Positions 905-24,921 of a stretch of 25,326 nucleotides of DNA are shown here, in pieces. A program made the position numbers and the translations under genes. Under the pieces are notes generated by a model that ran no database searches, was not told the DNA's origin, and saw only the letters and a list, made by a program, of their open reading frames with translations. The stretch lies in assembly GCA_016839605.1 (NCBI GenBank), contig JAEOTX010000154.1:1-25326 (forward strand). Direction: 5' to 3'. This DNA is from Candidatus Thorarchaeota archaeon. GTDB taxonomy: Archaea; Asgardarchaeota; Thorarchaeia; Thorarchaeales; Thorarchaeaceae. The first letter of the stretch is position 1; each line of letters begins with the position of its first letter.

Positions 905-1315
905 ATGTCACAGAAAGGCGAACCAATGTACCGCGGTCACAAGCTCACTGACCTAGTTCAGATGAACATGGACACACTCATTGAGCTGCTCCCCTCACGC
1001 CGCAGAAGGACCCTCAAGCGAGGCCTCCCGCCCCGACAGAAGAAGCTCCTGGTGAAGCTCAGGGCCGCCCGAAAGCAGGCCAAGAAGGGGAAAGAAGTTA
1101 TCGTCAAGACCCACTCCCGCGACATGGTCATTCTTCCAGAGATGGTCGACCTCACTATCGGCGTTCACAACGGCAAGGACTTCGTTCGTGTCAAGATCAT
1201 CCCGCAGATGATTGGGCACCTGTTGGGGGAATTTTCAAGTCCAATGAAACAGGTACGACACGGCAACCCAGGAATCGGTGCTACCAAAAGCAGCGCTTAC
1301 GTGCCTCTAAAGTAA
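905..1315 (+). CDS. rps19: 30S ribosomal protein S19 (uS19, archaeal S19P)
   Basis: Motifs [49 protein letters not shown] and [21 protein letters not shown] at 905 is preceded by a GGTGA RBS at 896-900 and is preferred over TTG 872. Confidence 0.97.
1229..1315 (+). repeat. rps19 3'-end repeat, copy 0 (functional gene tail; putative integration site)
   Basis: gaa ttt tca agt cca atg aaa cag gta cga cac ggc aac cca gga atc ggt gct acc aaa agc agc gct tac gtg cct cta aag taa. Eight further copies lie downstream. Confidence 0.95.
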
Positions 1316-1410
1316 ATCTACGTAAAGACAATCCTGCTCGCTCTATTTGGAAAATCAGTTTTGTGAAGAATGATACAATAAGTTTGATTAACTGCCTCCA
1401 CTCTTCATAA

Positions 1411-2793
1411 ATGGGAGTTCTATTGAATAGGTTCTGGATCAGCCTTCTATGTATCTCACTTATCATGCCTTCCCATCTTCTATCTCTGGAAATGAGTCCC
1501 GCCATGAGTACTCGAAGTAGGTTTAGCACCCTAACTTTCGACTCATCTTCAGATAGTAGTTTGACTTCCAAAAGCTCCATTTCCATAACTAGTGATAGCG
1601 ACTTCGTCAACCAAGGCTGGTCCGGAGATGGAACAGCTGATAGCCCCTTCCTTTTGGAGAACTTGTCCATCATATCATATGATATCTGCGTCTCTGTGAA
1701 GAATGTCACGAAGCACTTTCTCATCCGAAACTCTTACTTCTGGCGTAGAAGACTGGGAAGCACTCCGATGGATGCCTCTGCCATCTTGCTGGAAAACGCA
1801 GCTAATGGCACAGTTGACAACTGTGTTATTGAGAGTCCTGGTTTTGGTATTCTGATACGTAATTCGAGTGAGATTCATCTCATTAACAGTACTTTCTCGG
1901 GCTATGATTTGGGAGGCAGAGGACAGCTGGGTGTTCTGATGGATCACTCATACAATTGCAGTATGGACGGAGATTTCTTCTCTCTGTGGTGGCAGGCTGT
2001 GCATCTAGATTTTTGCTCTAGGATTAGCATGATAAATAGCATTCTTACAGAAAACCATGACGGAGTGGATATGTACTACTGCAACAATAGTGTGTTGATC
2101 AACAATACGATAGTCCAGAATGATAACACCGGAATCCATCTTTCATTGAGCTCTAACAATAGCATCTATGGAAACAAGATTGGAATGAATGAACACCAAG
2201 CTTTCGATAGCAAAGGACCCAATCTATGGGATGACAATCAATCTTTGGGAAATGGGTGGGGCGACTATAGTGGCATTGGCACCTATGCCATCCCAGGGTA
2301 TGCAAATAGTGTCGATCGCTATCCCTGGTTTGCTAGCGACTTCAACTACACAGTACGAGACCAAATTGGACCCACTATACTACATGGCCCCTACATAACC
2401 TCAACTGGACCAGATATCCGTAGGGCGTGGCAGTTCACAGCAACAGCCATTGATCCATCAGGAGTAGATACTGTAATAGCCTTCTATCGCTTTTGTGGAG
2501 AGGAATCTACATCTGTGAAGTTGAACCAATCGAGATACTATACTGACGAATATGAAGGGCGAATTGGTGTACCAGACCCATATAACGGATCCATCGAGGT
2601 CTATTACTGGGCAAATGATAGTCTTGGAAACAGCAGAGATTCAAATGTGGTTCGCTTTTCTTGGAATGGACCTCGTCCTTCAACTCCCCAACCATCATTG
2701 GAAATACTATCAGTTGCAGCTGTAGTAATCACTCCTCTAGTTTTACTCATCGTATTCGTGTTTCTCAAGAAGACTCGAGAGTCACATCGGTAG
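1411..2793 (+). CDS. Secreted NosD/CASH-type right-handed beta-helix protein with C-terminal membrane anchor (cassette 1)
   Basis: Signal peptide; GW.G.GT..SPF.LENL motif; repeated G(I/V)xL...N..I.N beta-helix repeats; GNxWGDY motif; C-terminal hydrophobic helix plus basic tail. Confidence 0.85.
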   Translation: MGVLLNRFWISLLCISLIMPSHLLSLEMSPAMSTRSRFSTLTFDSSSDSSLTSKSSISITSDSDFVNQGWSGDGTADSPFLLENLSIISYDICVSVKNVTKHFLIRNSYFWRRRLGSTPMDASAILLENAANGTVDNCVIESPGFGILIRNSSEIHLINSTFSGYDLGGRGQLGVLMDHSYNCSMDGDFFSLWWQAVHLDFCSRISMINSILTENHDGVDMYYCNNSVLINNTIVQNDNTGIHLSLSSNNSIYGNKIGMNEHQAFDSKGPNLWDDNQSLGNGWGDYSGIGTYAIPGYANSVDRYPWFASDFNYTVRDQIGPTILHGPYITSTGPDIRRAWQFTATAIDPSGVDTVIAFYRFCGEESTSVKLNQSRYYTDEYEGRIGVPDPYNGSIEVYYWANDSLGNSRDSNVVRFSWNGPRPSTPQPSLEILSVAAVVITPLVLLIVFVFLKKTRESHR

Positions 2794-2828
2794 TCATGTG
2801 GACACTCTGATACACAGCGCTAGGCTTA

Positions 2829-2915
2829 GAATTCTCAAACCCAATGAAACAGGTACGACACGGAAATCCTGGGATAGGCGCTACAAAAAGCAGCGCTTAC
2901 GTGCCTCTGAAGTAG
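2829..2915 (+). repeat. rps19 3'-end repeat, copy 1 (intact)
   Basis: Encodes [28 protein letters not shown]. From ATG to stop it has 9 substitutions versus copy 0, all silent. Confidence 0.97.
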
Positions 2916-2940
2916 TTCAAGGTGTATAGATCACGCCTTG

Positions 2941-3936
2941 CTAATACTGTTTCAGTTGCCTACCTATCAAGACAATTGAAACAGCTGCTAAAGCCCAGAG
3001 TATTGCTATTGCTAGAACTTCATTTGGCAAAGGTGTACCGAGCCCTGTTGGTAAAATCGTTTCTGTTATCGAAGGACCCACAAACCACTCAGGATCAGTC
3101 AAAGCACCCACAAAATCAGTCGAAGGACCCACACTATCAGTTGGCACTCCAGTAGGTAGCGCGTCCACCACATGCACTGTAACTGTATCCATTTCTTGAC
3201 TCCAGCCACCATCTATAGTCAGTCGATAGACATGCTCTCCAAGTTCGAGACCATCCACATTGATGGTAAGCGCCTGATTCCATATCCAATTGTGTTGTTC
3301 AAGAAGAAGGCCATCCTTCAATAATACATACCGAAATCCATGGGACGCAGTAGCCCAAGTCACTTCGTGACCAGTTGTCCCGAGTAGGTACCAAAGGTCG
3401 GGAGTGTCGTATAACTGGGGATCACCATCTACAGTCAATACAGTTCCGCCCATTCCAAACTCCAATAAGGGGGACTGAGCAACATTCCCCAACGTGTCAG
3501 TTGCCACATAGAATACCTGGCGAAATGTATCATATACTCTCCCTCCTGTGGAGTTATAGGAAAACCCGAGATTCGCTGCGAACAAGTCCGCTCTGTCTTC
3601 AGTTTGAACCATTGTAGTCTGATCCCATACACTGCTCCCGCGATCAGCATAATGCATTATCACAGAGGCAATTCCATCAGGATCCTTAGCCAGTACCTTC
3701 ACCTCCAGATTGTAATTGTATCTTTCCGCAGCATAATATTTCCGAGGGTAGTATTCCATGGTTGGGTTGCTTCCTTCTCCAGGAACATCCGATTCGTCAG
3801 CAATTGTCAGTGTTGCATTGGAATACTCGGCTGATTCTTGATTTGTTGCAACTGTTTTCATAGATGGAAGGCTAGAGGTTATTACAATGACATGGAGAAT
3901 TAGAAGGAGTGCAGCACCTCTGGTGGTGATTTTCAT
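2941..3936 (-). CDS. Secreted, membrane-anchored hypothetical protein (cassette 2); paralog of 15979-16908
   Basis: Signal peptide after ATG 3936 (the ORF extends to 3960) and a C-terminal TM helix. Shares IADESD.PGEGSNPTMEYYPRKYYAA and LYDTPDLWYL.G.TGHEVTW with the 15979-16908 product. Confidence 0.85.
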   Translation of the reverse strand: MKITTRGAALLLILHVIVITSSLPSMKTVATNQESAEYSNATLTIADESDVPGEGSNPTMEYYPRKYYAAERYNYNLEVKVLAKDPDGIASVIMHYADRGSSVWDQTTMVQTEDRADLFAANLGFSYNSTGGRVYDTFRQVFYVATDTLGNVAQSPLLEFGMGGTVLTVDGDPQLYDTPDLWYLLGTTGHEVTWATASHGFRYVLLKDGLLLEQHNWIWNQALTINVDGLELGEHVYRLTIDGGWSQEMDTVTVHVVDALPTGVPTDSVGPSTDFVGALTDPEWFVGPSITETILPTGLGTPLPNEVLAIAILWALAAVSIVLIGRQLKQY

Positions 3937-4032
3937 TCTTAATGTACCCTCCACACCCATCGAATAGGGTACTATTGAAATTAAGTTTGCGTTCTTTCAG
4001 CTAAACTGGAATATTGAATGAAGGACATGTGC

Positions 4033-4113
4033 TCAAACCCAATGAAGCAGGTCCGACATGGCAACCCGGGGATAGGTGCAACCAAGAGCAGCGCTTACGT
4101 GCCTCTAAAATAG
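4033..4113 (+). repeat. rps19 3'-end repeat, copy 2 (intact)
   Basis: Encodes [26 protein letters not shown]. From ATG to stop it has 10 substitutions versus copy 0, all silent. Confidence 0.97.
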
Positions 4114-4136
4114 TGAACTGCGCCAGTGCGTGATAG

Positions 4137-4174
4137 GCACCCCTTTCCTTAAATTTGTTTGAAACTAATGTATG
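4137..4174 (+). promoter_or_regulatory. Putative promoter module shared with 9078-9115
   Basis: gcacccctttccttaaatttgtttgaaactaatgtatg, 30/38 identical to 9078-9115. Contains a TATA-like TTAAAT about 60 nt before the start codon. Confidence 0.5.
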
Positions 4175-4193
4175 GATTGTTTGAAGCAATTCA

Positions 4194-4982
4194 TTGAGGG
4201 GAACCGGTAACTTGTCAAAGGAGTATATAGTTGAAACAAAAAACCTGTCAAAGTCATTTGGAAACATAAGAGCGCTTGATTCAGTCAATTTGTCGATAAA
4301 GGAAGGTAGTAGGTATGGTTACTTAGGTCCAAACGGCGCAGGCAAAACAACCACGATACGAATACTGAGTGGTCTTCTTGAATGCACTAGTGGAGATGCC
4401 ACAGTTTGCGGATATGATATTCATTCTGAGAATAAGATGATCAAACGCCACACAGGTCTTCTTCCTGAAACAGCAGGTCTCTACTCGAAGCTCTCAGCGT
4501 TTGAGTTCCTTGAGTTCATAAGTGCATTATATAGAATGCCATCAGATGAAGCACATTCCAGGATAAGCAAGCTTCTCTCGACACTGGGCTTAGAGAGTAG
4601 GCAGAACGATGCGATAGAAACCTTCAGTTCGGGGATGAAGCAAAAAGTACTCATTGCCTCAACTCTAATCCACGATCCGCAACTTGTCTTTCTCGATGAA
4701 CCTACAGCATATCTTGATCCCGCAATGAGTGTCCTGGTAAAGGACCTTATACTTGCCCTTTCGAAGCAAACTAATACCTCATTCTTCATCTGTACTCATC
4801 AAACAAGCTTTGCGAATGATGTCTGTGATGTCATTGGGATTCTAGATAATGGTAAGCTCTTGATTGAGGGTCCTACACAGGATATTATCAAGAGCTTTGA
4901 TGCTGATAACTTAGAAGATGCATATGTGAAATTGGTTGGAGGAGAGGTAGACAAAGAGCATTTGCTTGATTGGAGGGGCTAG
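4194..4982 (+). CDS. ABC transporter ATP-binding protein (ABC-2/drug-exporter type; cassette 3)
   Basis: Walker A GPNGAGKTT, signature FSSGMKQK, Walker B VFLDEPT, H-loop CTH. The true start may be TTG 4212. Confidence 0.95.
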   Translation: MRGTGNLSKEYIVETKNLSKSFGNIRALDSVNLSIKEGSRYGYLGPNGAGKTTTIRILSGLLECTSGDATVCGYDIHSENKMIKRHTGLLPETAGLYSKLSAFEFLEFISALYRMPSDEAHSRISKLLSTLGLESRQNDAIETFSSGMKQKVLIASTLIHDPQLVFLDEPTAYLDPAMSVLVKDLILALSKQTNTSFFICTHQTSFANDVCDVIGILDNGKLLIEGPTQDIIKSFDADNLEDAYVKLVGGEVDKEHLLDWRG

Positions 4983-6625
4983 CAGGATTGAGCCAGTGGA
5001 AAGCCATCGCCATAGCTGATTTCTATGCAAGTACGACAAGATTCAGAGGGCGCAGAAGGGAGTTCTTCATTATATTTCTCTCAATAGTCCTCATCTGGGC
5101 TTTTGTCATTGTTCCTTTTTTAGTCGGATTCCTTTTTGATAATTATCCTTTCCTTGAAGCTTTGGCCCTCGTTAATCCAATTGGATTAGTGAGAGTAGTT
5201 TTATTGGCAGTCTTATTCATCATCATAACATATCCTTCCTCCTCCGCGCTCCAAGAGTACAAGTTCCGCGATTGGGAACTTATTCTCAGCTGTGATGTAG
5301 ATACGAAACAAATACTCGCGGGAAAATTCATAGGTAAGCTGCCATCCTTCTGTCTGCTTCTACTTGCTTTGCTTCCATTCCTGATTTCGTTCCTCGATGC
5401 AGCATTTCGAATTTCACTCGCAGGCCAGCTATTAATCTATGCAGAGATCACAGCTTTTTCCATCTGCACATATGGATTGTCAATTGTCATTTGGTCGGGG
5501 ATTCAAGCCAGACTCAACCAATCATTACGGGGCGATTTCTATGCTAAGGTCATTTCAGTTGCGCTCATACTACCGGTTGCTTTTGCTTATGGACTAATGG
5601 CTTTCTTAGAGCAACTGACAGGAATAATGGAGAGTGGACTCTTACTTTTACTTCCGTCAACATGGTCTGGTGACCTTGCAGCTTGGATCATCCTTCAAAA
5701 CAATGCGTCGATATCCCCATCCGCGCTCCCGTTAGGTCCTGAGCCTTTGACGATTCTCTTGGGATGTTATGGACTCGGCATCCTATTCATTGGTTTCTTT
5801 TTCACTGATAGAGTATTCACCATTGCATTAGGCGCTAGGCTAGAAAGTCATAAGACAATGGGAAAGGAGAATTTCTTCCTGAGATTCGTTAGAAGGATTT
5901 GGCCTGGCTATTGGGGATCGTTGGTTGCAACGAGTTTCAAACACATCTATAGAAAGCCAGAGAACAATGGGAAGATAGTGTATGCATGTGCGGCATCCAT
6001 TCTGCCCGTACTAATATTCCCAATTCTCGCTATTTCAGCTCCTACAAAGCCACCACCTGACTTTGTCTTATTATTCAGCTTCCTGTCGATGCTTATGGTT
6101 TTCCCGCTAGTAGGCGCGTTAATGTTTGGAGGAATTGGTTTCTTTGAGAACAAGTACCAGCTTTGGGTGATCCAAGATGCTCCGGATGGAGTTAAATTAT
6201 TCACAACAGGTCGCCTTGCTGCTTATGCTGTATCTGCGGCTTTTCTAGCGGCAGTACCCACAATTGGGATTGGTATCTTTTACTCATCTCAACCCTTAGT
6301 TGCGGTCATCCTCTTTGGCTGTGCATTTGCGCTAACAATGGCCGGGACTCTTCAAGGGATGGGCATCGCATCCATCAATCCCGCATATGAAGATGAGATA
6401 TCGCCTCCATTGAACATCTTGGTCACATCAGTTACTGCATGGGGGCTACCATTTGTATTGCTTTTCGTGGGTCTTCCTTCTATCTCTCCAATCATCAACA
6501 CTTATTTCTCCGGCGCTATTGCTTTGCTCTTAAGCATAGTACTCTCGATTATTCTTCCCTTGTTATTAGTAGGCCTTGTTTTATTCTATATAGGCATGAA
6601 GAATCTGATGAGAACGAGCAAGTAA
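4970..6625 (+). CDS. Multi-pass membrane protein, probable ABC exporter permease (cassette 3)
   Basis: 551 aa with many hydrophobic helices; overlaps the ABC ATPase stop codon. Confidence 0.8.
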   Translation: MEGLAGLSQWKAIAIADFYASTTRFRGRRREFFIIFLSIVLIWAFVIVPFLVGFLFDNYPFLEALALVNPIGLVRVVLLAVLFIIITYPSSSALQEYKFRDWELILSCDVDTKQILAGKFIGKLPSFCLLLLALLPFLISFLDAAFRISLAGQLLIYAEITAFSICTYGLSIVIWSGIQARLNQSLRGDFYAKVISVALILPVAFAYGLMAFLEQLTGIMESGLLLLLPSTWSGDLAAWIILQNNASISPSALPLGPEPLTILLGCYGLGILFIGFFFTDRVFTIALGARLESHKTMGKENFFLRFVRRIWPGYWGSLVATSFKHIYRKPENNGKIVYACAASILPVLIFPILAISAPTKPPPDFVLLFSFLSMLMVFPLVGALMFGGIGFFENKYQLWVIQDAPDGVKLFTTGRLAAYAVSAAFLAAVPTIGIGIFYSSQPLVAVILFGCAFALTMAGTLQGMGIASINPAYEDEISPPLNILVTSVTAWGLPFVLLFVGLPSISPIINTYFSGAIALLLSIVLSIILPLLLVGLVLFYIGMKNLMRTSK

Positions 6626-6988
6626 GGATGGAACGAAGCTAGCTCCGAATCCAAGCGGTTTGCAGAACCTAAGGGATGATTGCTCGAATTAGAGGCAATC
6701 CTGCTAAAAGGAGGGAGCAACGTGGAGTCATGTTACCATATGATTGGGCTTTGATATTAAGGTGAAACCCTACCTCGGGTACGACGTGAAATATGGCGTG
6801 AAGTGAAATGAGGAAACGAAAGAGCTGAATGGCCTTTGGTTCTCCGTCTACTCCGCCAGGTACCCAGGCACTTGGTATGTTTGGCTCAAGGAGTCACTCG
6901 ACCAGATTGCGACCCACATCCTTGACAAAGACATACTGAAGTCAAAGACTTAACTATCGTATTTTTTGGGGAGCCTAGTCAAGAACCG

Positions 6989-7004
6989 TTGACCAATTGG
7001 TCAA
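6989..7004. promoter_or_regulatory. Perfect 16-bp palindrome, candidate operator
   Basis: TTGACCAATTGGTCAA is its own reverse complement and lies in a ~600 bp non-coding stretch. Confidence 0.45.
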
Positions 7005-7224
7005 TGACCCTAGGATTATATCCCTTCGCGACATGCTTAGACACATGGAGTCGATGTAATCTCGCAGAAACTTGGAAATTACAATATTGTACTAATTCCT
7101 AGTAAAGTAGGATTACTCTTGTATATCGCCTTGAGAACTTAGCTTTAGATTTCACATGATTGATTATTTGGTCGTACAATAGAACCTATTCCAGACAACC
7201 GAGAGGTTTGATCTCAGTTGTTAG

Positions 7225-7279
7225 TTTTCAAATCCGATGAAACAGGTACGACAAGGCAACCCTGGTATAGGCGCTACCA
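7225..7279 (+). repeat. rps19 3'-end repeat, copy 3 (3'-truncated)
   Basis: Encodes [18 protein letters not shown], then similarity stops about 6 nt before the stop codon of the convergent ORF at 7286. Confidence 0.92.
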
Positions 7280-7285
7280 GCGGGG

Positions 7286-8125
7286 TCACATGTAAGGCAT
7301 GTAATCACGCCGTTTCCCCAATTTCTCTGCAATCAAACCGCCACCTAGCAAAGGTGGGATGATATAAACTGGACCAAAAATCACCAATCGAAGAACTAGA
7401 GGAATTGAGGGAGTAGCTAGCCAGCTCACAAAGGGAACAGCTAGCAAGCCCAGAAGATATACCCAAGCAAGTATGAGTGGCATACTGAAGAAACATCCTA
7501 ATCCTACAATCCAAAACAATCTTCTGAACCTGAAATTATCGAGTCTTCTCCGAACGTAGTAGAAGAAGAATCCAGACATACCAGTGATGATAGTCCAGGT
7601 GATAATCTGTGTGGGTTCCCATACTCCGAGGCTCACCAACACCACACACAGCACAAGCGCAGTGACAAGCGACAAAGAAACTAGCAGAGTCTTCCCTCTA
7701 TTCCACTCAGGGACTGGCAGGCTCTGACCTGACCTATGCTCACGTATCAGGTTTGTGATTCTATATGCTGGGTTAGCCTTGATTTGAATCTCAATAATCT
7801 TAGCTCCTTCAGCGAAATCCTGAACCTCCAAGAGCTCCTTCAATCTTTGTGGAGCTTGATTCCTGCTGAGAGTCCTCCTTTCTATCTCTTCATTAGTGTC
7901 CACAACACACGTTTCAAGTAGGGTAGCAGTTGCTCCAAGAGAGCCCTCCATGAATCCCCCCTCATTGAGATAGTCCCACAACTCCTCTGCAACGCGAGAA
8001 TAGAGTTCTCCGTCCCACGATTGTTTGCTCCACTCTTCCACAAGGGCATATAGCGTTCTCGGGGACTTGCTCATCTTGTGGCTATTCGGGGATTCTTCCG
8101 TTGGGTTCGGTTGTGCATTCTCCAT
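7286..8125 (-). CDS. Hypothetical membrane protein (soluble N-terminal half, ~4 C-terminal TM helices; cassette 4)
   Basis: 279-aa ORF with ATG start and a hydrophobic C-terminal half. Confidence 0.75.
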   Translation of the reverse strand: MENAQPNPTEESPNSHKMSKSPRTLYALVEEWSKQSWDGELYSRVAEELWDYLNEGGFMEGSLGATATLLETCVVDTNEEIERRTLSRNQAPQRLKELLEVQDFAEGAKIIEIQIKANPAYRITNLIREHRSGQSLPVPEWNRGKTLLVSLSLVTALVLCVVLVSLGVWEPTQIITWTIITGMSGFFFYYVRRRLDNFRFRRLFWIVGLGCFFSMPLILAWVYLLGLLAVPFVSWLATPSIPLVLRLVIFGPVYIIPPLLGGGLIAEKLGKRRDYMPYM

Positions 8126-8372
8126 CCTAAGCGCCCAACTACTAACCTCTCTCGATAGACTAATCGTATAGAATACTTTTAAGCTATTTTCTTATTCGAC
8201 AATGACGCATAACATAATTTAGCTTACTCTAGTTGAGTGCTGATTCCGTATCTTCCATGACAGTCATAGGATACACCTTTCACAAATACATAAGTTTTCA
8301 ATTTACACTCATTTGGTAATCACACAAGTGAGTAGGGCTAATTCGATTATGTATTGTGAAGGATATGTGCGC

Positions 8373-8398
8373 GAGCGTGTGACAGGCCCGCAAGCTGG
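8373..8398 (+). repeat. Second repeat family, copy A (ERVTGPQAG-encoding)
   Basis: gagcgtgtgacaggcccgcaagctgg, 22/26 identical to 12651-12676. All 4 mismatches are at third codon positions. Confidence 0.7.
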
Positions 8399-8577
8399 CA
8401 CATTTTTCCTTTCAAGAAGGATATCATTCTTTGTCGCCTATGATAAGAGATACAATGACTCACGCTCACCGAGTGCAGGATGTTTCGTTGGCGTAAGGCG
8501 TGGCGAAACGCCGTTATACTCTTAAGGAAGTATGATTCACCATAGTTACTTAACTCATTATGTGGGGATTTTAAGAA

Positions 8578-8886
8578 ATGCAGGAACAGATGTTTGTAAT
8601 ACCTATTCCGCCTCTACTTGCTCTTGGGTTTCTGATCGGCATCATATTACTGGTTCTCGGCTATCGAGAGGAATCTGACCTAACGAGACGTCATCATCTA
8701 ATGGGTTCAGGTGTAGTAGTCATAGGCATTATGATTCCAATCACTCCACTTAGCTGGTATGGCTATTGGATAGTGACCAGGGGGCTGGTGCTGGGGCTTG
8801 TTGAAATCGTTATTATTGCTGTTGCCCTGATCGTTGGTATCCTTCTCGTGTACAAAGGTGTCAAGACTTACTCGGGACCTCAATAG
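8578..8886 (+). CDS. Small membrane protein (3 TM; cassette 4)
   Basis: 102 aa with three hydrophobic segments and an ATG start. Confidence 0.75.
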   Translation: MQEQMFVIPIPPLLALGFLIGIILLVLGYREESDLTRRHHLMGSGVVVIGIMIPITPLSWYGYWIVTRGLVLGLVEIVIIAVALIVGILLVYKGVKTYSGPQ

Positions 8887-8952
8887 AATACCCGCGCTCC
8901 TCTGGCAGAGTATTTTCTCAGGCAAGCTGGATTGTTCGCTCAATTATTTAAC

Positions 8953-9036
8953 TTCTCAAATCCTATGAAACAGGTCCGACATGGCAACCCGGGGATAGGT
9001 GCAACAAAAAGCAGCGCTTACGTGCCTCTGAAGTAG
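8953..9036 (+). repeat. rps19 3'-end repeat, copy 4 (intact)
   Basis: Encodes [27 protein letters not shown]. From ATG to stop it has 9 substitutions versus copy 0, all silent. Confidence 0.97.
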
Positions 9037-9884: not shown

Positions 9885-9917
9885 AGAATTGAATTAAGAA
9901 ACCTCAGTTGACATCAG

Positions 9918-10001
9918 TTTTCAATTCCAATGAAACAGGTACGACATGGCAACCCTGGTATAGGCGCTACAAAAAGCAGCACTTACGTGCCTCTGAAGTA
10001 G
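9918..10001 (+). repeat. rps19 3'-end repeat, copy 5
   Basis: Encodes [27 protein letters not shown] (A>T in the core). Confidence 0.97.
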
Positions 10002-10869: not shown

Positions 10870-10932
10870 ATACCACACGGCAACCCGGGGATAGGTGCAA
10901 CGAAAAGCAGTGCTTACGTGCCTCTGAAGTAG
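10867..10932 (+). repeat. rps19 3'-end repeat, copy 6 (5'-truncated)
   Basis: tag ata cca cac ggc aac ccg ggg ata ggt gca acg aaa agc agt gct tac gtg cct ctg aag tag. [18 protein letters not shown] is intact and abuts the stop of the upstream ORF. Confidence 0.95.
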
Positions 10933-13776: not shown

Positions 13777-13898
13777 ATCTCAAACCACGTTATGATATAC
13801 ACCTTTTCTCGCCAAATGATTTTCGAATCATGGAATCACACTTCTGTAAGTTTGCAATCATACCGCTATTACTCGTCCTTTTTTGCCACTGTCTAAAG

Positions 13899-13982
13899 TT
13901 TAGCAACCCTATGAAACAGGTACGACACGACAACCCGGGGATAGGTGCAACCTAGAGCAGCGCTTACGTGCCTCTAAAATGA
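13899..13982 (+). repeat. rps19 3'-end repeat, copy 7 (decaying)
   Basis: Encodes [26 protein letters not shown], with G>D and K>TAG. The first Ser is encoded by AGC instead of TCA. Confidence 0.96.
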
Positions 13983-15880: not shown

Positions 15881-15889
15881 AGCCAGGTT

Positions 15890-15970
15890 GAGTTTCCGTT
15901 GAAACAGGTACAACATGGCAACCTTGGTATAGGCGCAACCAAGAATAGTGCATACGTGCCTCTGAAGTGA
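15890..15970 (+). repeat. rps19 3'-end repeat, copy 8 (most degenerate)
   Basis: Encodes EF--PLKQVQHGNLGIGATKNSAYVPLK*: 4 amino-acid changes plus an apparent 6-nt deletion. Confidence 0.93.
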
Positions 15971-15978: not shown

Positions 15979-16908
15979 TTATTGTGACTGACGTTTCCAA
16001 TATACTACAATTGACAAGACAGCGACTGCAATGACTGATACAGATATCAACAATGGCAATATCAGGCCATCCTCATGATTTAGTATTGGGTTCCTATTTG
16101 GTCCAACACTACCAGTTGGTACTCCAGCAGGGAGCTCATTCACAACGTGCACGGTTACATTGTCTATACCTGTGCTAAATCCACCATCCACGGATAATCG
16201 ATAGACATGATCCCCCGAGGGGAGGCCGTCCACATTGATAGTCAAAGACCCGACCCATATGTGCTTTTCAAGAATAAGCCCATCCTTCAATAGCGTATAG
16301 TAGAACCCACCGTACACAGTTTCCCAGGTTACTTCATGACCTGTAGACCCCACTAAATACCATAAATCAGGAGTATCGTATAAATCACCATCATAATCAG
16401 CAGTCCATGTTATCTGAGCCAGTCCAAATTCCATAATGGGCGACTGTGCAACGTTTCCGAGTGTGTCATTTGCTATATAATACACCTGGCGATAGGTATC
16501 ATAAAGATACCATCCTGTAGAGTTATAGAAGAATTCGAGTGTGGTTGTGAAAATGTCACCACTGCCAGCACTACGTGTCATCGGAGTCTGATTCCAATCA
16601 CTGCTTCCTCGATTGGCGTAGTACATAATCACCGAGTCAATACCGTCAGGATCCCTTGCCAGGACACTCACAGTAAGAGTGTAGTCGAAGTTGGCAGCAG
16701 CATAATATTTCCGGGGATAGTATTCCATGGTGGGATTGCTACCTTCACCAGGAATGTCAGACTCATCAGCAATCATCCATTTCTCATTATAGAGCTCAGC
16801 TGATTGGCTATCTAACAGCAATTCATTTGATGAAGGGTAATTGGAGCTGATTGCAACAACATGTAGCATTAGAAAGAGGATTAGGACGCTTCTGGCATCA
16901 ACTCTCAT
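15979..16908 (-). CDS. Secreted, membrane-anchored hypothetical protein; paralog of 2941-3936
   Basis: Long shared blocks with the cassette-2 protein; signal peptide and C-terminal TM. Confidence 0.85.
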   Translation of the reverse strand: MRVDARSVLILFLMLHVVAISSNYPSSNELLLDSQSAELYNEKWMIADESDIPGEGSNPTMEYYPRKYYAAANFDYTLTVSVLARDPDGIDSVIMYYANRGSSDWNQTPMTRSAGSGDIFTTTLEFFYNSTGWYLYDTYRQVYYIANDTLGNVAQSPIMEFGLAQITWTADYDGDLYDTPDLWYLVGSTGHEVTWETVYGGFYYTLLKDGLILEKHIWVGSLTINVDGLPSGDHVYRLSVDGGFSTGIDNVTVHVVNELPAGVPTGSVGPNRNPILNHEDGLILPLLISVSVIAVAVLSIVVYWKRQSQ

Positions 16909-16910
16909 GC

Positions 16911-18245
16911 TCAGTTTTCCCTCCTGCTCTTAATTACTCGAAATAGCATAAAAGTGGCAACCCATCCCAAAATGACAATTATAGAAAGCAGGAAGAGAGT
17001 TTGTGGGAGCTCTTCTGCTGGAGAAGGATGCACTGTGACGATGACCTCATCATAAGCCGAGAGATAGAACCTATCAACAACATGGAGCTTTATCGTGTGG
17101 ACTCCCACGCTCAGATATGACACATCCAGCATTATGGTTGTCTCTTCAAGCCGTTCATCCTGCCAGTTGACACCATCGGTTATATAGTACCTGTCTGGAT
17201 TGACCTCCTCAACTTCCCAGACTAGGACGACTTCCGAATCACCTGAATTGAACTCGACATCCTCGGGGTGACTGAGTAATGGCGGATCGTTTTCGAGAAG
17301 TATGGGGTAGAGGTCCACTGAACCAGCACTGCCATTGATGGGCAGGGGCTGGCCTGGAGTAATATGCTTCCAGACATTACCTCCGTGCCAGGTGTATCCC
17401 CATCTGTTGTTAAACCCATCATCACGCGCCTGAGATTCATTATTGTCATAGATGTGATTGTAGGTGAATTGTGATTCTGAAGCATATGATTTGATTCCAA
17501 TTCTGTTATCTGTAAATGAATTAGTAATGAGCCAGAATACCTGACCATGGAGTTCAATCCCGGTCGACGAGTATGTGACAGTGTTGTTGAATGAGTGGAC
17601 CGTGTCTCCGCCAGAATAGGGATCTCCTTGGCTTGCTATTTTAATTCCAATTTCGGAACATCCAGAAACAAAGTTGTGTTCAACATAAACACCTTCTCCC
17701 TCAGATACGATGCCCCACTCACAATTTTGAATCACGGACTCGGCTACTCTATTAGATGAACCTGTAGCGTTGATTCCAGTTGAACAGTTAGTAATCTCAC
17801 AGCGAACGATGCGGGATCCATCGCCCTCAATTAATATACCAGTTGAGGAGCTAGAAATCTCACAGCTAACGATACCGCAATACCTCCCATCAAAGTAGAT
17901 GGCAGCCCCTTGTGCACCTGAAAGTCTGCATAGCCGGATTGTCACATAGATTTCATTTGGCATTGATACCGAGATACAATATCCACCACTAGGATTGAGA
18001 ATCTGATAGCCTTCAATTAGGTATGGGTCACTATGCGTTCCAGATCCCGGTAGCTCTAGTGAGGTGATGTTATCGGAGTGTGTTATATTGATTGGATCAT
18101 GTTGTGCGAATGAGATTGAGCTGATGTCATGAAGAGTTTCGCTACTTGGCGGAGCGGCTGCATATTGGACTGCCATAACATTCAGTAGAAGAAGCGTTGT
18201 GGCCAGAACAATACAGATTCTGGCCCGTTTCTTTGCATCTGTCAC
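16911..18245 (-). CDS. Secreted NosD/CASH-type beta-helix protein with C-terminal membrane anchor
   Basis: PGSGTHSDPYLIEG, repeated C.I..C..GI beta-helix repeats, GNVW, GSVDLYP and a C-terminal TM. Same family as 1411-2793. Confidence 0.85.
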   Translation of the reverse strand: MTDAKKRARICIVLATTLLLLNVMAVQYAAAPPSSETLHDISSISFAQHDPINITHSDNITSLELPGSGTHSDPYLIEGYQILNPSGGYCISVSMPNEIYVTIRLCRLSGAQGAAIYFDGRYCGIVSCEISSSSTGILIEGDGSRIVRCEITNCSTGINATGSSNRVAESVIQNCEWGIVSEGEGVYVEHNFVSGCSEIGIKIASQGDPYSGGDTVHSFNNTVTYSSTGIELHGQVFWLITNSFTDNRIGIKSYASESQFTYNHIYDNNESQARDDGFNNRWGYTWHGGNVWKHITPGQPLPINGSAGSVDLYPILLENDPPLLSHPEDVEFNSGDSEVVLVWEVEEVNPDRYYITDGVNWQDERLEETTIMLDVSYLSVGVHTIKLHVVDRFYLSAYDEVIVTVHPSPAEELPQTLFLLSIIVILGWVATFMLFRVIKSRREN

Positions 18246-18312: not shown

Positions 18313-18409
18313 TAGCATTGCAGAGGCGCTTTGCGTCCACATTTAATTTATCTGCGATTTTATCAAATAGTATCTATTCAGGAATGCTGTATTTCTAGGT
18401 GGACAATGG

Positions 18410-18964
18410 ATGAAGAGCTGGTTTGGTCCTCGAACAGTGTACATAGACTGTTATGAGGCATTGGGATTTCATGAAGAGAACTACGAGCGAATCATGATTG
18501 TCATGTCTGCCATAGGTTCATCCAATCTTCTATACCGCGAATGGTTGTCCGGTCGAAATGGAGGAGGAAGGGTGAGAACACTGCGTTGTGCCTTTGAAAC
18601 CGATTTAGATCCAGTACAAGTGAAAATCATGATGCTGGGTCTGCAGTATTTAGAATCCAGTGATGTTCCGAGGGATGTGGAAACTGAAGATCATACAGGA
18701 TTATTTCGTTTTGCGAGCTTTGATGTGTTTGAGGTTAAGGAATCAGAGTATGAAGAGAAAGGTCGACTGCGAAGAATGCTGAAGCGACCTGAAACGAAGA
18801 TAGAGATGGATGATTTAGAAGTCATAGGAAATCATTCTGTCTTCTTTGTAGCATGTAGGAAGCGCCTAATTGGGAGTATCGATGACTCATCACGACAAAA
18901 GCTGCTCAATATCGAACAGCAGATTCTTGAGAAACTACAAGCTGAAGAAGCCATAGCACATTGA
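18410..18964 (+). CDS. Hypothetical protein
   Basis: 184-aa ORF with an AGGTGGA RBS-like sequence upstream; no recognised motif. Confidence 0.7.
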   Translation: MKSWFGPRTVYIDCYEALGFHEENYERIMIVMSAIGSSNLLYREWLSGRNGGGRVRTLRCAFETDLDPVQVKIMMLGLQYLESSDVPRDVETEDHTGLFRFASFDVFEVKESEYEEKGRLRRMLKRPETKIEMDDLEVIGNHSVFFVACRKRLIGSIDDSSRQKLLNIEQQILEKLQAEEAIAH

Positions 18965-19462
18965 CAAATTGCTAGTTACTACATGCGCGGGTAGGTGAAT
19001 TTACGTCCGTTTCCTGAAGAATAGAATAAAGGCACAACCCAAGCCGTTCTGAGTATGATGGGGGACATCTCTTCTTTAGCTGATATGGGAATTTAGAGAG
19101 TTTGGCAATGATTCCATATTAAGTTACGAACTCGGCATCAATTTCCGAACTTGCTCCTTCGATTTCTTGCTATTTCGCAGGGTCCAAGTGTAAAAACAGG
19201 AAACTGGTGGCTAACGCCAATTGATATGCATTCTATGTGGCATAAAGCGTGGTGTTAGAAAGTTGGCATTCGCTAAGATTCGTCGGAAACCCAAGCCTGA
19301 GCCCTCCTTTGAAGAACATGAGCGTCTGAAGACAAGCATGAGGGTTGAGATGTACAGAGTTTCTTTCCGGAGGTAGAAATCCTGTCGCTAATTATGCGCT
19401 GGGATTCAAATTCTCTCCTTTCGGCCGTGCCAAAGGCGCGGCCCTTCTCCTTTTTCAAGTGA

Positions 19463-20086
19463 CTATTTCCAATCGATCTTGCTAAGTAGCGATTTCAGTG
19501 CAAGCGGTGGTTTCACTTTCTTGAGTTTGGCAATCACTGTCAGGTTCACATTTGGATCCAAGCCCAGTTTGATAAGATTTCGACAATGATAGAGGGGGGA
19601 CAAATCCACAGAACTAATTTCATTCTTTGTGAGGGTGAGATTCCGAAGCTTTTTGCATTTACTAAGCGGTGCGAACTCAATACTCTCGAGCTTGTTCTCA
19701 TAAAGATGAAGTGCCTTGATTTCGGAGCACTGCTTTAATGGAGTCAGGTCAATCGTACGCAATTTATTGAAGGAGAGATCCAGATGCATCAGATTGGTAC
19801 ATCCCTCGAGAAATGATAGATCGATTGTGTCGAATTGGTTTCCGCCTAGGGAGAGTTCAACTAGTGTCGAACATCCCTTCAGCTTAGAAAGGTCGATTGC
19901 TTGTATCTCATTCCCCGAGAGGGTCAGAACCTCGAGGTTAGGAAACTGGTCAAGTGAGGACAGATCCGTTGTGGCAATTCTTCTGTCACTGAGGTCAATC
20001 TCCGTGGCACTTGAATCAAAACGTTCCACAACCTTGCCTCCCTTCTTGGTCTCGCTCCAAATAGTAATCTCGTCCATTAGCGACAA
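19463..20086 (-). CDS. Leucine-rich repeat protein
   Basis: About 6 repeats of 22 aa, LxxLxLxxNxI/LxxIDLxxLxxC. Confidence 0.92.
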   Translation of the reverse strand: MSLMDEITIWSETKKGGKVVERFDSSATEIDLSDRRIATTDLSSLDQFPNLEVLTLSGNEIQAIDLSKLKGCSTLVELSLGGNQFDTIDLSFLEGCTNLMHLDLSFNKLRTIDLTPLKQCSEIKALHLYENKLESIEFAPLSKCKKLRNLTLTKNEISSVDLSPLYHCRNLIKLGLDPNVNLTVIAKLKKVKPPLALKSLLSKIDWK

Positions 20087-20139
20087 ATCCTAGGGGTGCG
20101 TACGTGTTCTCCACTTAATAACTACGATTGCAGGCTCAG

Positions 20140-20958
20140 CTATCCCTTAGGAGGGACTTCAGCCTTCATTCTGTATAGCCGGTGATGCTGCTTGTATCCT
20201 CGCTCTTCACAGAGCTCAGCTAGATTCTCATTGTCAGTAAATGTCAGCCGAACGTAGTCATATTCCAGCAAACTATATTCTTCTAGACCAGAAATGAAGT
20301 CATCAATGCCATCAAGGTTGTCAATTCGAAACGGCATACATCCTGGGAATGTAGGAGTAAACCGACACGCTCCAACAATATCCGATTCCTTATTCTTTAG
20401 CACCAAGACATGGTATTCCTCCGATTCGAGAAACCGTCTTATCTGGGCGGCAGGAAGGTAGTCGTGATATTTCAGGCCAACGAGATCGATTTCATCCTCT
20501 TGAATTGAGTCGCATCTGTAGTTCCCGGTAGGAGCTATTGTCTTGAATGGAACAAAGTAATGCCAAGTAGTTCCAATTATTTCAAATCCGAATTTCTTGT
20601 AGAGATGCTGGGCATGCTTGTTATTGTCCTGTGTATAGAGTATAGCTTGAGCAAGATTCTCGTTTCGAAACCAATCGATGGCATATTCCATTAGTCTAGC
20701 GCCTAAACCTTGATTCTGCATGGTCTTAGCAACAGCTATCCTCCCAAGATGTCCTGCATCTTCTCCGAACTTAGAAACAGCGAGCATTCCTATGATTCTG
20801 CCATCTGATTCGAGAACAAAGAATGATTCATGTGAGATAATCCTAAGAAACGACTCACGGTCAATCCGATCATCTGGAAATAGTTCGGCATCGATTGTCT
20901 CGAATTCAGGCCAGTCTTCCTCTCTGATGAGCCTGATTCTTAATTCGTTTCCAAGCAA
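20140..20958 (-). CDS. GNAT family N-acetyltransferase
   Basis: IAVAKTMQNQGLGARL (motif A) and NKHAQHLYKKFGF (motif B); GGAGG RBS. Confidence 0.92.
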   Translation of the reverse strand: MLGNELRIRLIREEDWPEFETIDAELFPDDRIDRESFLRIISHESFFVLESDGRIIGMLAVSKFGEDAGHLGRIAVAKTMQNQGLGARLMEYAIDWFRNENLAQAILYTQDNNKHAQHLYKKFGFEIIGTTWHYFVPFKTIAPTGNYRCDSIQEDEIDLVGLKYHDYLPAAQIRRFLESEEYHVLVLKNKESDIVGACRFTPTFPGCMPFRIDNLDGIDDFISGLEEYSLLEYDYVRLTFTDNENLAELCEERGYKQHHRLYRMKAEVPPKG

Positions 20959-20973
20959 GCTGATTCCTCCTGG

Positions 20974-21090
20974 TCACCCCATGATGATTATAGCAAGCAT
21001 TCCAACCATGAATATTATGAAGACGATAAATCAAAGACAGGTCCTCGTAGCAGATCGTGGATAGTCATCTTCCTCTCCATAGTCGTACAT
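20974..21090 (-). pseudogene. Small single-TM protein ORF with an in-frame TGA
   Basis: Manual translation MYDYGEEDDYPRSATRTCL*FIVFIIFMVGMLAIIIMG*; the internal TGA is at 21031-21033. Confidence 0.45.
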
Positions 21091-21164
21091 ACTAATCGCC
21101 TGAACTCGTGTGAGATTACTAAGTCATACTCTTCAGTCTATTGTCAGTCACAGACGTTGTATGA

Positions 21165-21692
21165 CTATGAGAGTCTGAGCTTGAACACCTTCTCAAACTT
21201 GTCAAGTTTTGGTCGTATCACATAACGGCAGTATTGCTGGTTGGGATTGTTCTTGAAATAATTTTGATGATAGTCTTCTGCCCTATAGAACTTGGTGAAG
21301 GGAACTATCTCGGTAACCACAGGATTCTTCCAAGCTCCGCTCGCATCAATTTTGGCCTTGAAGCGCTCTGCTGCATCCTTCTGCGCTTCAATATGATAGA
21401 AGATAGCAGAACGATACTGAGTGCCTTTGTCATTCCCCTGGCGATTGAGTGTTGTAGGGTCATGGGTTTCAAAGAACACCTCAAGGAGATCTTCGAATGT
21501 GATCTGCTCTGGATCATATTCTATCTGACATGCTTCAGCATGGCCGGTTTTTCCTGAGAGGACATCATTGTAGGTAGGATTGTCTGTATGTCCGCCTGTG
21601 TAGCCTGATACCACTGAGGCTACGCCCTTGAGCTGCTGAAACACTGCTTCTACACACCAAAAGCAACCAGCTGCTAACGTTGCAGTTTCCAT
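21165..21692 (-). CDS. msrA: Peptide-methionine (S)-S-oxide reductase MsrA
   Basis: GCFWC active site, TGHAE, HDPTTLNRQGND.GTQYRS, AEDYHQNY. Start is ATG 21692 or 21707. Confidence 0.97.
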   Translation of the reverse strand: METATLAAGCFWCVEAVFQQLKGVASVVSGYTGGHTDNPTYNDVLSGKTGHAEACQIEYDPEQITFEDLLEVFFETHDPTTLNRQGNDKGTQYRSAIFYHIEAQKDAAERFKAKIDASGAWKNPVVTEIVPFTKFYRAEDYHQNYFKNNPNQQYCRYVIRPKLDKFEKVFKLRLS

Positions 21693-21755
21693 GAGGTATC
21701 CAAGCATCTAATGCAAATCAATAGCTGCAAAGAGGCACAACATGAATTCTGGCAG

Positions 21756-22190
21756 TCAATCTGTTTGTCTTAATCTGAACCAGTGTTCGATGAAGAGGAT
21801 GCCTAAGAGGAGATCACCTGCAACGAAACCGACTACTAAGATGGACGCCTCCCCGATGATGAAATAGAAGAGACCCACGATGAATATCGTGACTTTCTCA
21901 AATATCACAACTGGAATGAAACTCTGACTGATTTCATAGTTGATACTGATAGCATAGAGGAGAAGTCCCACTACGAATACGAGGAGGAAGAAAGAATCAG
22001 CCCATAACAACGTTGGAGGGGGAGGAACGTCACCAGCCAGCGAAAAATAGCCAATGTCGATTCTGGGGAGAACAATGAAAGATACTGCTAGAACCCAATT
22101 CCATATAGCTGCAATCTTGAACAATAAATTGTGGTATCGCTCTCTGTCCATAGAGTTCACACCTTTACAGCTTTTCGACATATCAAGCAT
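21756..22190 (-). CDS. Hypothetical membrane protein (4 TM)
   Basis: Four hydrophobic segments; start uncertain. Confidence 0.75.
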   Translation of the reverse strand: MLDMSKSCKGVNSMDRERYHNLLFKIAAIWNWVLAVSFIVLPRIDIGYFSLAGDVPPPPTLLWADSFFLLVFVVGLLLYAISINYEISQSFIPVVIFEKVTIFIVGLFYFIIGEASILVVGFVAGDLLLGILFIEHWFRLRQTD

Positions 22191-22203
22191 ATAACTCCGA
22201 CGA

Positions 22204-23500
22204 CCGTTCCCCGAAACCTAGACAATCCTGGACATCACTGCCCAAGACTGATGTTCGGTTCCTGCTTCGCCAAGGTCTGCATCGTGATTCCAGAAGAATC
22301 GCGATGGCTTACATCCTCTCCACAGGCAGTTAGAGTCTCCGGCAAACTGACGGTGACTAGATTCAGTGCGGCATTCAAATCCCGGTCTATCCGAATTCCA
22401 CACGTTTCACAATGATACTCTCTTTCTGAGAGAAGAAGTCCATCCTTCTTGTGTCCACAGCTGGAACATCTCTTTGACGAGGGAAATACCCGGGGAGCGA
22501 TGATGAGCTGTGAGCCGTACCACGTGCATTTGTACTCAAGTTGCCTTCTGAACTCATACAATCCCACATCTGCTATAGCTCTTGCCAACCTTCGATTCTT
22601 CATCATTCCTGACACGTTCAGGTCTTCGATCACTATCTTGCTGTGGCTCTTGGCAAGATAGGTCGTCAGCTTATGAAGAGTGTCATGTCTGATGTTAAAG
22701 ATCTTAAGATGCATCTTAGCTAGTCTGAGCTTTGCTTTCTCACGGTTTCTACTTCCTCTCTCTTTTCGTGATAGACTCTTTGACAGTCTTCTAAGTTTCT
22801 TGAGCTGTCTTCCTAAAGCTCGAGGATTTGGAAAGGTTGTACGGGTGGAGAGGGTTGCCAGGGTCTTGACCCCAAGGTCTACTCCTACTGCCTCTCTTCT
22901 GATAGGTCCTGGATCTGCAACTTCTTCTCTTACAGTGATTGACACAAACCATCGGTCAGCTCGCCTTCGTATTGTAGCAGAGAGGATTCGACCACTATGA
23001 TATGTTTCTCTCTTCTCCTTGATTCGGATCGCTCCAAGACGCGGGAGCTGGATTCTTCTTCCCTTAAATCGAATAGTCCCAGTCAGTCTAAAACTGTCCT
23101 TCACACCCTTCCTTTTGAAACGAGGGAAGCCAACCTTGTTTCCCGACTTCAATCCCCGATAGAAGTTTTTGAAGGCTCTGTCAAGGTCTCTCAGTGCTTC
23201 TTGGGGCGCACACTTGGAGCATTGATACATCCAGGGAAACTGACTCTTTTTCAGGCGGTTCAACAGCTTGTGTTGTTTCATAGCATCTGTGAATCGTTCA
23301 TCTCCCTGATTTGCCCTGTATGACTTGATTCTCTGCTCAAGACCCCAGTTGTAGGCAAAACGAGCGACTCCAGCATGTTGAAGAAGAGAGCTCCTCTGGC
23401 AGTTGTTGGGGTCTAACTCGTATCGGTAGGCCTTGTGGACCAACATCAGAGTATAGTCTTGATAGGTCAATAAAAGGACATACCAATCCAATAGCAGCCC
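22204..23500 (-). mobile_element. Stand-alone tnpB insertion element (no tnpA); boundaries approximate
   Basis: tnpB with a typical 3' region (GCCTGTGGAGAG...GAAGCAGGAA...GGTTTCGGGGAACGG on the minus strand); no transposase ORF adjacent. Confidence 0.65.
22235..23446 (-). CDS. tnpB: RNA-guided endonuclease TnpB (IS200/IS605/IS607 OrfB)
   Basis: N-terminal KAYRYELDPN..ARFAYNW; GFPRFK; RuvC residues GVDLG, IEDL and DRDLNAA; zinc ribbon CSSC..CETC. ATG 23446 is preferred. Confidence 0.96.
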   Translation of the reverse strand: MLVHKAYRYELDPNNCQRSSLLQHAGVARFAYNWGLEQRIKSYRANQGDERFTDAMKQHKLLNRLKKSQFPWMYQCSKCAPQEALRDLDRAFKNFYRGLKSGNKVGFPRFKRKGVKDSFRLTGTIRFKGRRIQLPRLGAIRIKEKRETYHSGRILSATIRRRADRWFVSITVREEVADPGPIRREAVGVDLGVKTLATLSTRTTFPNPRALGRQLKKLRRLSKSLSRKERGSRNREKAKLRLAKMHLKIFNIRHDTLHKLTTYLAKSHSKIVIEDLNVSGMMKNRRLARAIADVGLYEFRRQLEYKCTWYGSQLIIAPRVFPSSKRCSSCGHKKDGLLLSEREYHCETCGIRIDRDLNAALNLVTVSLPETLTACGEDVSHRDSSGITMQTLAKQEPNISLGQ

Positions 23501-23583
23501 AAAGATGAATTTGATGAATGTCTAGGGTCTATGCGTAGTTCAATGCCCTTTCTCAGAGTAAGGAAGTTCCTATATGGGGAGGT

Positions 23584-24753: not shown

Positions 24754-24921
24754 GGACCACTTTTTGTAGGTGCTTAAAAGGGTCCAAAAGGACGTGTATT
24801 TGATGTGATGAGCCCGGTGTCATGGGGTTGTAGGCTGTCCCTTGTTGTCACCGGGTCTCTCCTCCTAATTCTCTAATTCCTCAACTGGCATAGCTCAAAC
24901 GAAAAAAGATAACGAACTGTT

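Follow-up and report, generated by a model that had tools for sequence, protein, structure and literature searches.

Why should the last codons of an essential ribosomal protein gene be repeated behind the gene itself, and why do the best-preserved of these repeats differ from it at silent positions only? The question is raised by a 25,326-nucleotide (nt) stretch of Thorarchaeota DNA (hereafter the window), which is the entire contig C84 of a 3.08-Mb genome assembly that is 80% complete. A Pfam S19 match (PF00203, E 6e-30), the sole one in this assembly, places the single-copy uS19 gene rps19 at positions 905-1315 of the forward strand; the gene has 98% identity to its orthologues in the loci L001 and L002 of the nearest species. 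The last approximately 28 codons of rps19 form a direct repeat of nine copies, the working one included, all on the same strand and spaced 1-3 kb apart. They start at positions 1229 (working), 2829, 4027, 7222, 8950, 9915, 10846, 13896 and 15884, and no tail copies were found outside this array in the rest of the genome. The best explanation, which we regard as probable, is that the eight displaced copies are former or cassette-borne 3' ends of rps19, left behind by serial replacement of the tail and joined by homologous recombination. The gene and the copies are as follows.

905..1315, forward: rps19, the working gene; its last 28 codons (1229-1315) are the working repeat copy
2829..2915, forward: displaced copy 1, intact; 9 silent differences from ATG to stop
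4027..4113, forward: displaced copy 2, intact from codon 3; 10 silent differences
7222..7281, forward: displaced copy 3, truncated; the first ~19 codons are left
8950..9036, forward: displaced copy 4, intact; 9 silent differences; closest allele is the working tail of L001 (5-6 differences)
9915..10001, forward: displaced copy 5; a single Ala>Thr, the remaining differences silent
10870..10932 (repeat start listed as 10846), forward: displaced copy 6; 5' part gone, last 20 codons intact
13896..13982, forward: displaced copy 7; internal TAG, Gly>Asp, Ser codon AGC instead of TCA
15884..15970, forward: displaced copy 8, the most decayed; 4-5 replacements

Silent differences among the tail copies

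A sequence-only reading of the window had reported that copies 1, 2 and 4 differ from the working tail by 9, 10 and 9 substitutions, all of them synonymous, and the same counts were obtained here over the 72 nt from ATG to stop. Even the change in the stop codon (TAA>TAG) is silent, and the protein of the three copies is identical to that of the working tail from Pro-Met through the stop. The five intact copies have 16 variable sites between ATG and stop, i.e. 15 silent third positions and the one Ala>Thr of the copy at 9915; with approximately 24% silent sites, the chance of finding 15 out of 16 silent is below 1e-8. The codon comparison that the same reading had called for gave, by the Nei-Gojobori method, proportions of synonymous (pS) and nonsynonymous (pN) differences of 0.48 and 0.024 for the five intact copies, a ratio of 0.05 and not near 1, where it should be kept in mind that the copies have haplotype blocks in common and hence are not eight independent lineages. 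Intact neighbouring copies show pS of 0.37-0.58, pN of 0.02-0.03 and pN/pS of 0.02-0.07. With a pS of 0.29-0.37 between the rps19 gene body of the window and those of L001 and L002, the silent divergence between tail copies equals or exceeds that between rps19 bodies of different species.

The switch of a Ser codon from TCA to AGC, which had been pointed out for copy 7, is indeed present at 13896, in a copy that is also decayed. The GC content at third codon positions falls from 0.76 in the rps19 body of the window to 0.43 in its tail (p = 0.001); a smaller drop is found in all Thorarchaeota tails, so the break in codon usage at the repeat edge is weak evidence.

Turnover of the tail among the Thorarchaeota

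Tail types were scored as S[SN]PM or [SA][VIP]T[NT] on a maximum-likelihood tree built from the first 107 codons of 52 Thorarchaeota genes. The tail type needs 6 changes on this tree, at least 5 of which are forced by well-supported branches, and at most 1 out of 500 label shuffles was as low as 6. Judged by this tree, tail type is polyphyletic with respect to the gene body, which points to horizontal turnover of the tail. The locus L028 is a case of this kind; its body belongs to one clade and its tail has the protein sequence of L008, a member of another clade. A comparison with the tails of relatives had been proposed by the sequence-only reading, and its outcome is divided: tail type is discordant with the body, but no window copy has an identical allele in the other sampled genomes, the nearest being 3-6 differences away in 75 nt.

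Silent divergence within the working gene gives a similar picture. In close Thorarchaeota pairs, the last 24 codons show 2-6 times the silent divergence of the first 108. Over 12 disjoint close pairs, pS is approximately 0.52 in the tail versus approximately 0.24 in the body, the tail exceeding the body in 10 out of 12, and there are 0-5 replacement changes per pair. Five control pairs from other archaea (Bathy-, Jord-, Frey- and Atabeyarchaeia) show no such excess (pS 0.31 in the tail, 0.34 in the body), and the excess is therefore not inherent to this region of the gene. A weaker codon bias of the tail was rejected as its cause on the same ground.

The genes around the island are conserved, with phosphoglucomutase (PGM), TPR and rps19 on the left and o18410, LRR, GNAT and MsrA, through to a TPR gene, on the right. 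In L057 and L035 the right-hand flank genes follow rps19 directly, i.e. these are empty sites. Homology ends at the rps19 stop codon in several close pairs, and in the pair L005/L006 the mismatch density rises from approximately 3% to approximately 13% inside the tail. The arrangement recurs throughout the family: extra tail copies stand behind rps19 in 11 of the 58 Thorarchaeota loci fetched, and with the window tail as a DNA probe at least 13 of 86 family genomes have two or more copies (the congeners G061 and G064 have 6 and 4). A metagenome scan returned four contigs only, all of them array fragments without a gene body, and the contigs of many assemblies end at or just past the rps19 tail. 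The cargo of the arrays in relatives comprises LRR, beta-helix and beta-propeller surface proteins, membrane proteins, TPR-nitrilase proteins and methyltransferases.

The arrays of the sister genomes L001 and L002 differ by a single cassette. The L002 array corresponds to the L001 array plus one extra cassette in first position, and the tail that works in L001 sits at the position of a displaced copy in L002. The fate of a copy after displacement can be followed in the orthologous displaced copies L001_2048 and L002_8021, which lie in 94%-identical flanks. Between the two there are 2 silent and 4 replacement changes, and the stop codon is lost; pN/pS is approximately 0.65. This pair evolves neutrally, which speaks against selection on the copies once they are displaced. 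The low pN/pS of the window copies, the discordant tree, the silent excess, the L001/L002 arrays and the neutral displaced pair all support the earlier proposal that each copy was shaped as a working C-terminus of uS19, here or in a donor lineage, and the numbers require the donor half of that alternative.

Two further features of the locus may be added. Throughout L001-L058, rps19 lies outside the usual rpl2-rps19-rpl22 operon and stands alone behind phosphoglucomutase-family and TPR genes, before a hypervariable island. A closed chromosome from the same genus, CP070658.1, carries two full TPR-rps19 copies, 55 kb apart and in divergent orientation (L003 and L005, at approximately 1.26 and 1.32 Mb), the tails of which differ at several silent sites.

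The joining step and its rivals

Where in the repeat the exchange takes place can be judged from its edges and from the haplotypes between them. The right edge lies at the stop codon or a few bases beyond. Immediately left of the ATG from which the differences were counted, in the region of codon 4, the copies differ systematically: codon 4 reads AGT (Ser) where the copy is the working one (window, L001, L002 and L086) and AAY (Asn) in nearly all displaced copies. The leftmost dozen bases of displaced copies therefore never enter the working gene, and the crossover must lie at least 10-12 nt inside the left edge. Copies with common upstream cargo agree in their left parts (L087_1868 and L081_1630, to about codon 13), copies with common downstream cargo agree in their right parts (L001_1330 and L002_7303, from about codon 20), and the switch point inside the repeat differs between cases. 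The middle block, codons 11-20, has a unique third-position haplotype in 31 out of 33 copies, and a four-gamete test found all four gametes at 122 of 153 site pairs. Such a pattern would be expected from Campbell-type or double-crossover exchange inside the repeat. Because the switch points vary, we favour homologous recombination between tail copies as the joining step and consider it reasonably likely.

Serial tail replacement could then proceed in the following manner. The hypervariable island behind rps19, made up mostly of cell-surface and membrane genes, would begin within the gene itself, with its left edge some 28 codons ahead of the stop. Recombination within the 84-nt tail would let new DNA in, the incoming segment would provide all of the tail that lies right of the crossover and hence the working C-terminus, and the previous tail would be displaced downstream of the new cargo, lose selection and decay. 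Each tail would thus have spent most of its history in the working uS19 of some congeneric lineage, which may explain why about half of the silent sites vary between tails and the protein sequence hardly ever does. As to the route, DNA carrying a donor array might be transferred and take part in a double crossover, or circles might be excised and enter again. Selection on the surface-gene cargo would keep the recombination products, and no element-borne enzyme would be needed once a first duplication exists. The sequence-only reading had gone further, in suggesting that cassettes are selected to repair the essential gene on insertion; incoming segments do seem to bring a functional tail, but selection for repair is a conjecture, neither a mobilising enzyme nor a free cassette having been found.

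A number of observations weigh against joining by homologous recombination alone. The left edge of the repeat (TTY-TCA-AAY-CCN-ATG) is the same within approximately 3 nt in about 25 copies lying beside unrelated DNA, and recombination between existing copies can inherit a common left edge but cannot create it. Third-position diversity is lower in codons 6-10 and 21-26 than in codons 11-20. These blocks could be the protein-binding boxes of a site-specific enzyme; alternatively, selection may have kept them alike to provide the identity on which recombination relies. Ten sites, all silent, separate the tail that works in L001 from the copy at the corresponding position in L002, and the cargo only 4 nt downstream is 94% identical. 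To account for this, additional short-patch exchange or some other process is required; conversion of short patches by other tail copies is one possibility. Finally, neither a free or circular cassette nor a donor genome or identical allele came to light, and a trans-acting recombinase may be unassembled, since the genome is 80% complete.

Tyrosine and serine recombinases (PF00589, PF00239) have no match in the 80%-complete genome, the window contains no integrase, and no recombinase or nuclease domain was recognised in the approximately 12 arrays examined, metagenome contigs included. LAGLIDADG domains are absent from all array contigs. Matches in the genus lie in long open frames of 543-1282 amino acids on other contigs, which look like inteins, and a LAGLIDADG nuclease was rejected as the driver. 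No tail copy was found on viral contigs. Folding of the repeat in the manner of attC sites was also rejected, 8 folds of four copies on both strands being no better than shuffles (z-scores -1.1 to +1.9). The genes at 2941-3960 and 15979-16908 were considered as integrases and discarded; both are paralogous secreted, membrane-anchored proteins adjoining tail copies. A TnpB (22235-23491) guiding cuts in rps19 was rejected as well, being a simple 1.3-kb insertion relative to L001 that lies 6 kb past the last copy. This lone insertion (22206-23547; tnpB on the reverse strand, with OrfB_IS605 and Cas12f1-like TNB matches) interrupts the conserved flank, has no relation to the array and is absent from the otherwise syntenic L001. 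In L026, the TPR gene and rps19 are separated by a 73%-identical TnpB, which we take as a coincidence.

Serial tail replacement might equally be completed by a dedicated site-specific enzyme acting in trans, a variant that we regard as unlikely but worth serious attention. It could be an integrase that uses the tail as attachment site, in the manner of integrons or staphylococcal cassette chromosomes (SCC), or a homing nuclease like those of the yeast WHO elements, cutting insert-free tail alleles, in which case silent recoding would also confer resistance to cutting. The constancy of the left edge, which extends over several genera, and the two low-diversity blocks speak for such an enzyme, as does the association of the edge variant S[SN]PM with arrays (7 out of 8 loci versus 5 out of 33, kinship being ignored). 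WHO elements resemble the array in architecture and in their discordant phylogeny at the gene end (PMC7282813), and their target sites are under diversifying selection (bioRxiv 10.64898/2026.08.13.744650). On the other hand, the enzyme searches were negative in the genome and the arrays, there is no attC-like fold, and the repeat itself offers further evidence: switch points vary, the Ser/Asn difference at codon 4 puts the crossover inside the edge, and variability peaks not at the edge but in a block 30-60 nt from it. A related proposal, which we put forward with more doubt still, is that of a dedicated, integrase-free gene-capture system anchored in the uS19 tail, with the boxes at codons 6-10 and 21-26 read by a trans-acting recombinase or nuclease.

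Two other explanations dispense with serial replacement. Were the copies local duplicates of the resident tail, identical at birth, for instance long target-site duplications made by a Cas1-like integrase, the array would be expected to be polarised, and it is so: the best-preserved copies are proximal, and the distal ones carry stops and replacements. However, a local duplicate that decays neutrally should show a pN/pS of approximately 0.5, in contrast to the values of 0.02-0.07 seen for four intact copies at pS of 0.37-0.58. Truly displaced orthologues do evolve in the neutral manner (approximately 0.65), and tail types are discordant with the gene body. By the pN/pS argument, the copies cannot be decaying local duplicates, long target-site duplications or 'fossil snapshots' of one drifting gene; the sequence-only reading had argued that neutral local decay would ignore the reading frame, and a ratio of approximately 0.05 at a pS of approximately 0.5 upholds this. 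We give local duplication practically no credence. Hardly more probable is that the displaced copies function in place, whether they encode 23-residue peptides from the conserved ATG, are fused to cargo proteins as their ends or act as regulatory DNA. Every intact copy in the window does retain ATG and stop codon, but many displaced copies in other genera have no ATG, distal copies have internal stops, truncated copies persist, and no long reading frame of the window runs into a tail copy. Translation as independent peptides, which the sequence-only reading had named as the other possible source of selection, also disagrees with the L001/L002 displaced pair, with its lost stop and its 4 replacement versus 2 silent changes.

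Cargo of the array and related systems

The proteins encoded between the copies include beta-helix and other surface proteins with signal peptides or transmembrane (TM) segments, an ABC transporter, an OST3-like membrane protein, a DUF6454 protein and a methyltransferase. The principal features are listed below.

1316..2828, forward: cassette 1; beta-helix/NosD-like surface protein at 1411-2793 (Pfam Beta_helix, NosD)
2941..3960, reverse: cargo surface protein with signal peptide and C-terminal TM segment; paralogue of 15979-16908; no Pfam match
4194..6625, forward: cargo ABC transporter; ATPase 4194-4982 (Pfam ABC_tran) and a 551-residue partner, 4970-6625
15979..18245, reverse: last cargo block; surface protein 15979-16908 and NosD-like protein 16911-18245
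18340..25326, no single strand given: conserved right flank; o18410, LRR, GNAT, MsrA, o21756, PDE and TPR, syntenic with relatives

The gene pair at 15979-18245 is also found on the metagenome contig L083, where it is followed by an intact tail copy that the window does not have; nothing convincing as a remnant tail copy was found just ahead of the conserved flank (approximately 18340). The cargo is mostly secreted or membrane-anchored, with beta-helix, LRR, DUF7948/SBBP propeller and 'ANNQGL' paralogues (window 1411-2793, 2941-3960, 9150-11779 and 15979-18245; L087 187-9651), and its make-up suggests that the island behind rps19 is a diversifying cell-surface locus. An identical, AT-rich module of 41 nt with a TTAAAT motif is found at 4134-4174 and 9075-9115, ahead of unrelated cargo genes, in both cases following tail copies that also have the same middle haplotype. 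We speculate that this module might act as a mobile promoter, carried along with the right part of the tail.

A different repeat, about 60 nt long and unrelated to the tail, with the core GTGCGCTGCGCGAGCGCGTGACAGGCCCGCAAGCTGGCACAT, separates units of one or two genes. It forms an array of at least 10 copies on contig C20 of the same genome (= L085), at positions 3080, 4901, 5936, 6919, 7948, 8375, 9981, 12122, 12517, 13465 and 14772, and also occurs in the window at 8361-8406 and 12640-12689, inside two composite cassettes of the rps19 array, and in L084 at 427-482, 1055-1091 and 2961-2990. It matches no tRNA or Rfam family, its folding is no better than that of shuffles, and in the frame proposed by the sequence-only reading not all of its variants are silent. 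Rather than a further gene tail, it seems to be a junction between cassettes at the DNA level, possibly an attC-like site or one of the type found in clusters of attC sites lacking integrases (CALINs).

It is instructive to compare the rps19 array with systems in which DNA accumulates at the end of a conserved gene. SCCmec and the ccr-less pseudo-SCC islands at the 3' end of rlmH (orfX), and the tandem accretion and cis-mobilizable elements (CIMEs) at tRNA genes, are stacks of recombinase-less units, whose repeats are the 15-30 bp core sites of a serine or tyrosine recombinase known from related elements. The likeness lies in tandem, recombinase-less units bounded by direct repeats of the 3' end of a conserved gene. 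The difference is that no such enzyme is seen at rps19 and that the rps19 repeat covers the whole 28-codon tail. In enteric bacteria, gnd lies beside the O-antigen cluster and shows excess silent diversity and recombinant segments, acquired by co-transfer with alleles of the island. Here too a conserved housekeeping gene with excess silent diversity adjoins a diversifying island of surface genes, but at gnd the whole flanking gene is affected and there is no pile of displaced ends. Displacement arrays of the Rhs and contact-dependent inhibition (CDI) type have a variable toxic C-terminus and an immunity gene, whereas the rps19 tail is invariant in protein and its cargo consists of separate, unrelated genes. 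The repeats made by target-site duplication with Cas1-like enzymes or casposases are identical at birth, unlike the adjacent intact copies at rps19.

The closest described architecture is that of the WHO clusters at FBA1 in Torulaspora and Lachancea, where an insertion exchanges the essential gene's 3' end for a foreign version, the old one being moved downstream (Coughlan et al. 2020, PMC7282813). WHO arrays consist of fragments from a common start, the newest being proximal to the gene and the older ones decayed, and the gene's 3' end is phylogenetically discordant; each unit encodes a LAGLIDADG-zinc-finger endonuclease, the cleavage by which was shown experimentally (PMC7282813). The target site is under diversifying selection (Osborne et al. 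2026 preprint, bioRxiv 10.64898/2026.08.13.744650). The stack of 3' fragments of an essential gene, with a common start, the newest fragment proximal and older ones decayed, is found at rps19 as well, and so is a host-gene 3' end discordant with the body. The two differ in that the cargo at rps19 (surface proteins, membrane proteins and enzymes) has no nuclease domain, the fragments are 84 nt long as opposed to approximately 400 bp, and the host is an archaeon and not a yeast.

At the 3' end of icd in E. coli, e14 and phage 21 provide an alternative end that keeps the gene whole, the displaced icdC being a pseudogene, and the icd ends differ mostly silently (Hill et al. 1989, according to PMC13626634). 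Direct repeats of the gene's 3' end flank the insert in both systems, and the proximal one completes rps19 just as it does icd. However, e14 is one prophage that encodes its integrase and recombines at a fixed crossover, and rps19 carries a stack of small, enzyme-free cassettes. The integrase that elements of the e14 or tRNA-island type, or their relatives at the same site, would carry was seen neither in the window nor in the approximately 12 arrays, and no viral contig has a tail copy. As for a fixed crossover, the left edge at rps19 is constant within approximately 3 nt, yet switch points vary and the crossover falls inside the repeat. Integrons offer a further comparison, as attC-only arrays (CALINs) were reported to be enriched in Asgard archaea (Ghaly et al. 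2022, PMC9668308). They have in common with the rps19 array a polarised order, cassettes of one to three genes, a recurring element of 60-90 nt and, mostly, no linked integrase. They differ in that no IntI was found at rps19 (no PF00589 match in the 80%-complete genome or the window), the repeat is a coding gene end and not a folded attC palindrome, and the cassette cargo lies on both strands instead of being co-oriented. A literature search found no description of rps19 as an insertion anchor.

The finding has consequences both for the gene and for the DNA behind it. To judge from eukaryotic uS19, the C-terminal tail of the protein reaches toward the decoding centre, and Asgard archaea are the closest prokaryotic relatives of eukaryotes. 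By the statistics of its sequence, this part of an essential, single-copy ribosomal protein gene behaves, throughout an archaeal family, as exchangeable DNA: between lineages, turnover of the last 24-28 codons is about twice as fast as that of the remaining uS19 gene, with the protein unchanged. A practical warning follows for the use of rps19 as a marker, namely that its tail has a history unlike that of the rest of the gene and that assemblies tend to break there. If the more doubtful gene-capture system were to prove real, cassettes would travel with a recoded but protein-identical tail, so that the gene is never broken, and the silent diversification of the middle of the tail would itself be selected, either because it confers resistance to cutting or because it guards against deletions between neighbouring copies. 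Under serial tail replacement by homologous recombination, which we prefer, rps19 is a clean example of a gene end serving as a portable homology arm, with a yeast homing element as its nearest described analogue, and the array behind it is a datable, ordered record of the insertions that built an island of cell-surface genes.

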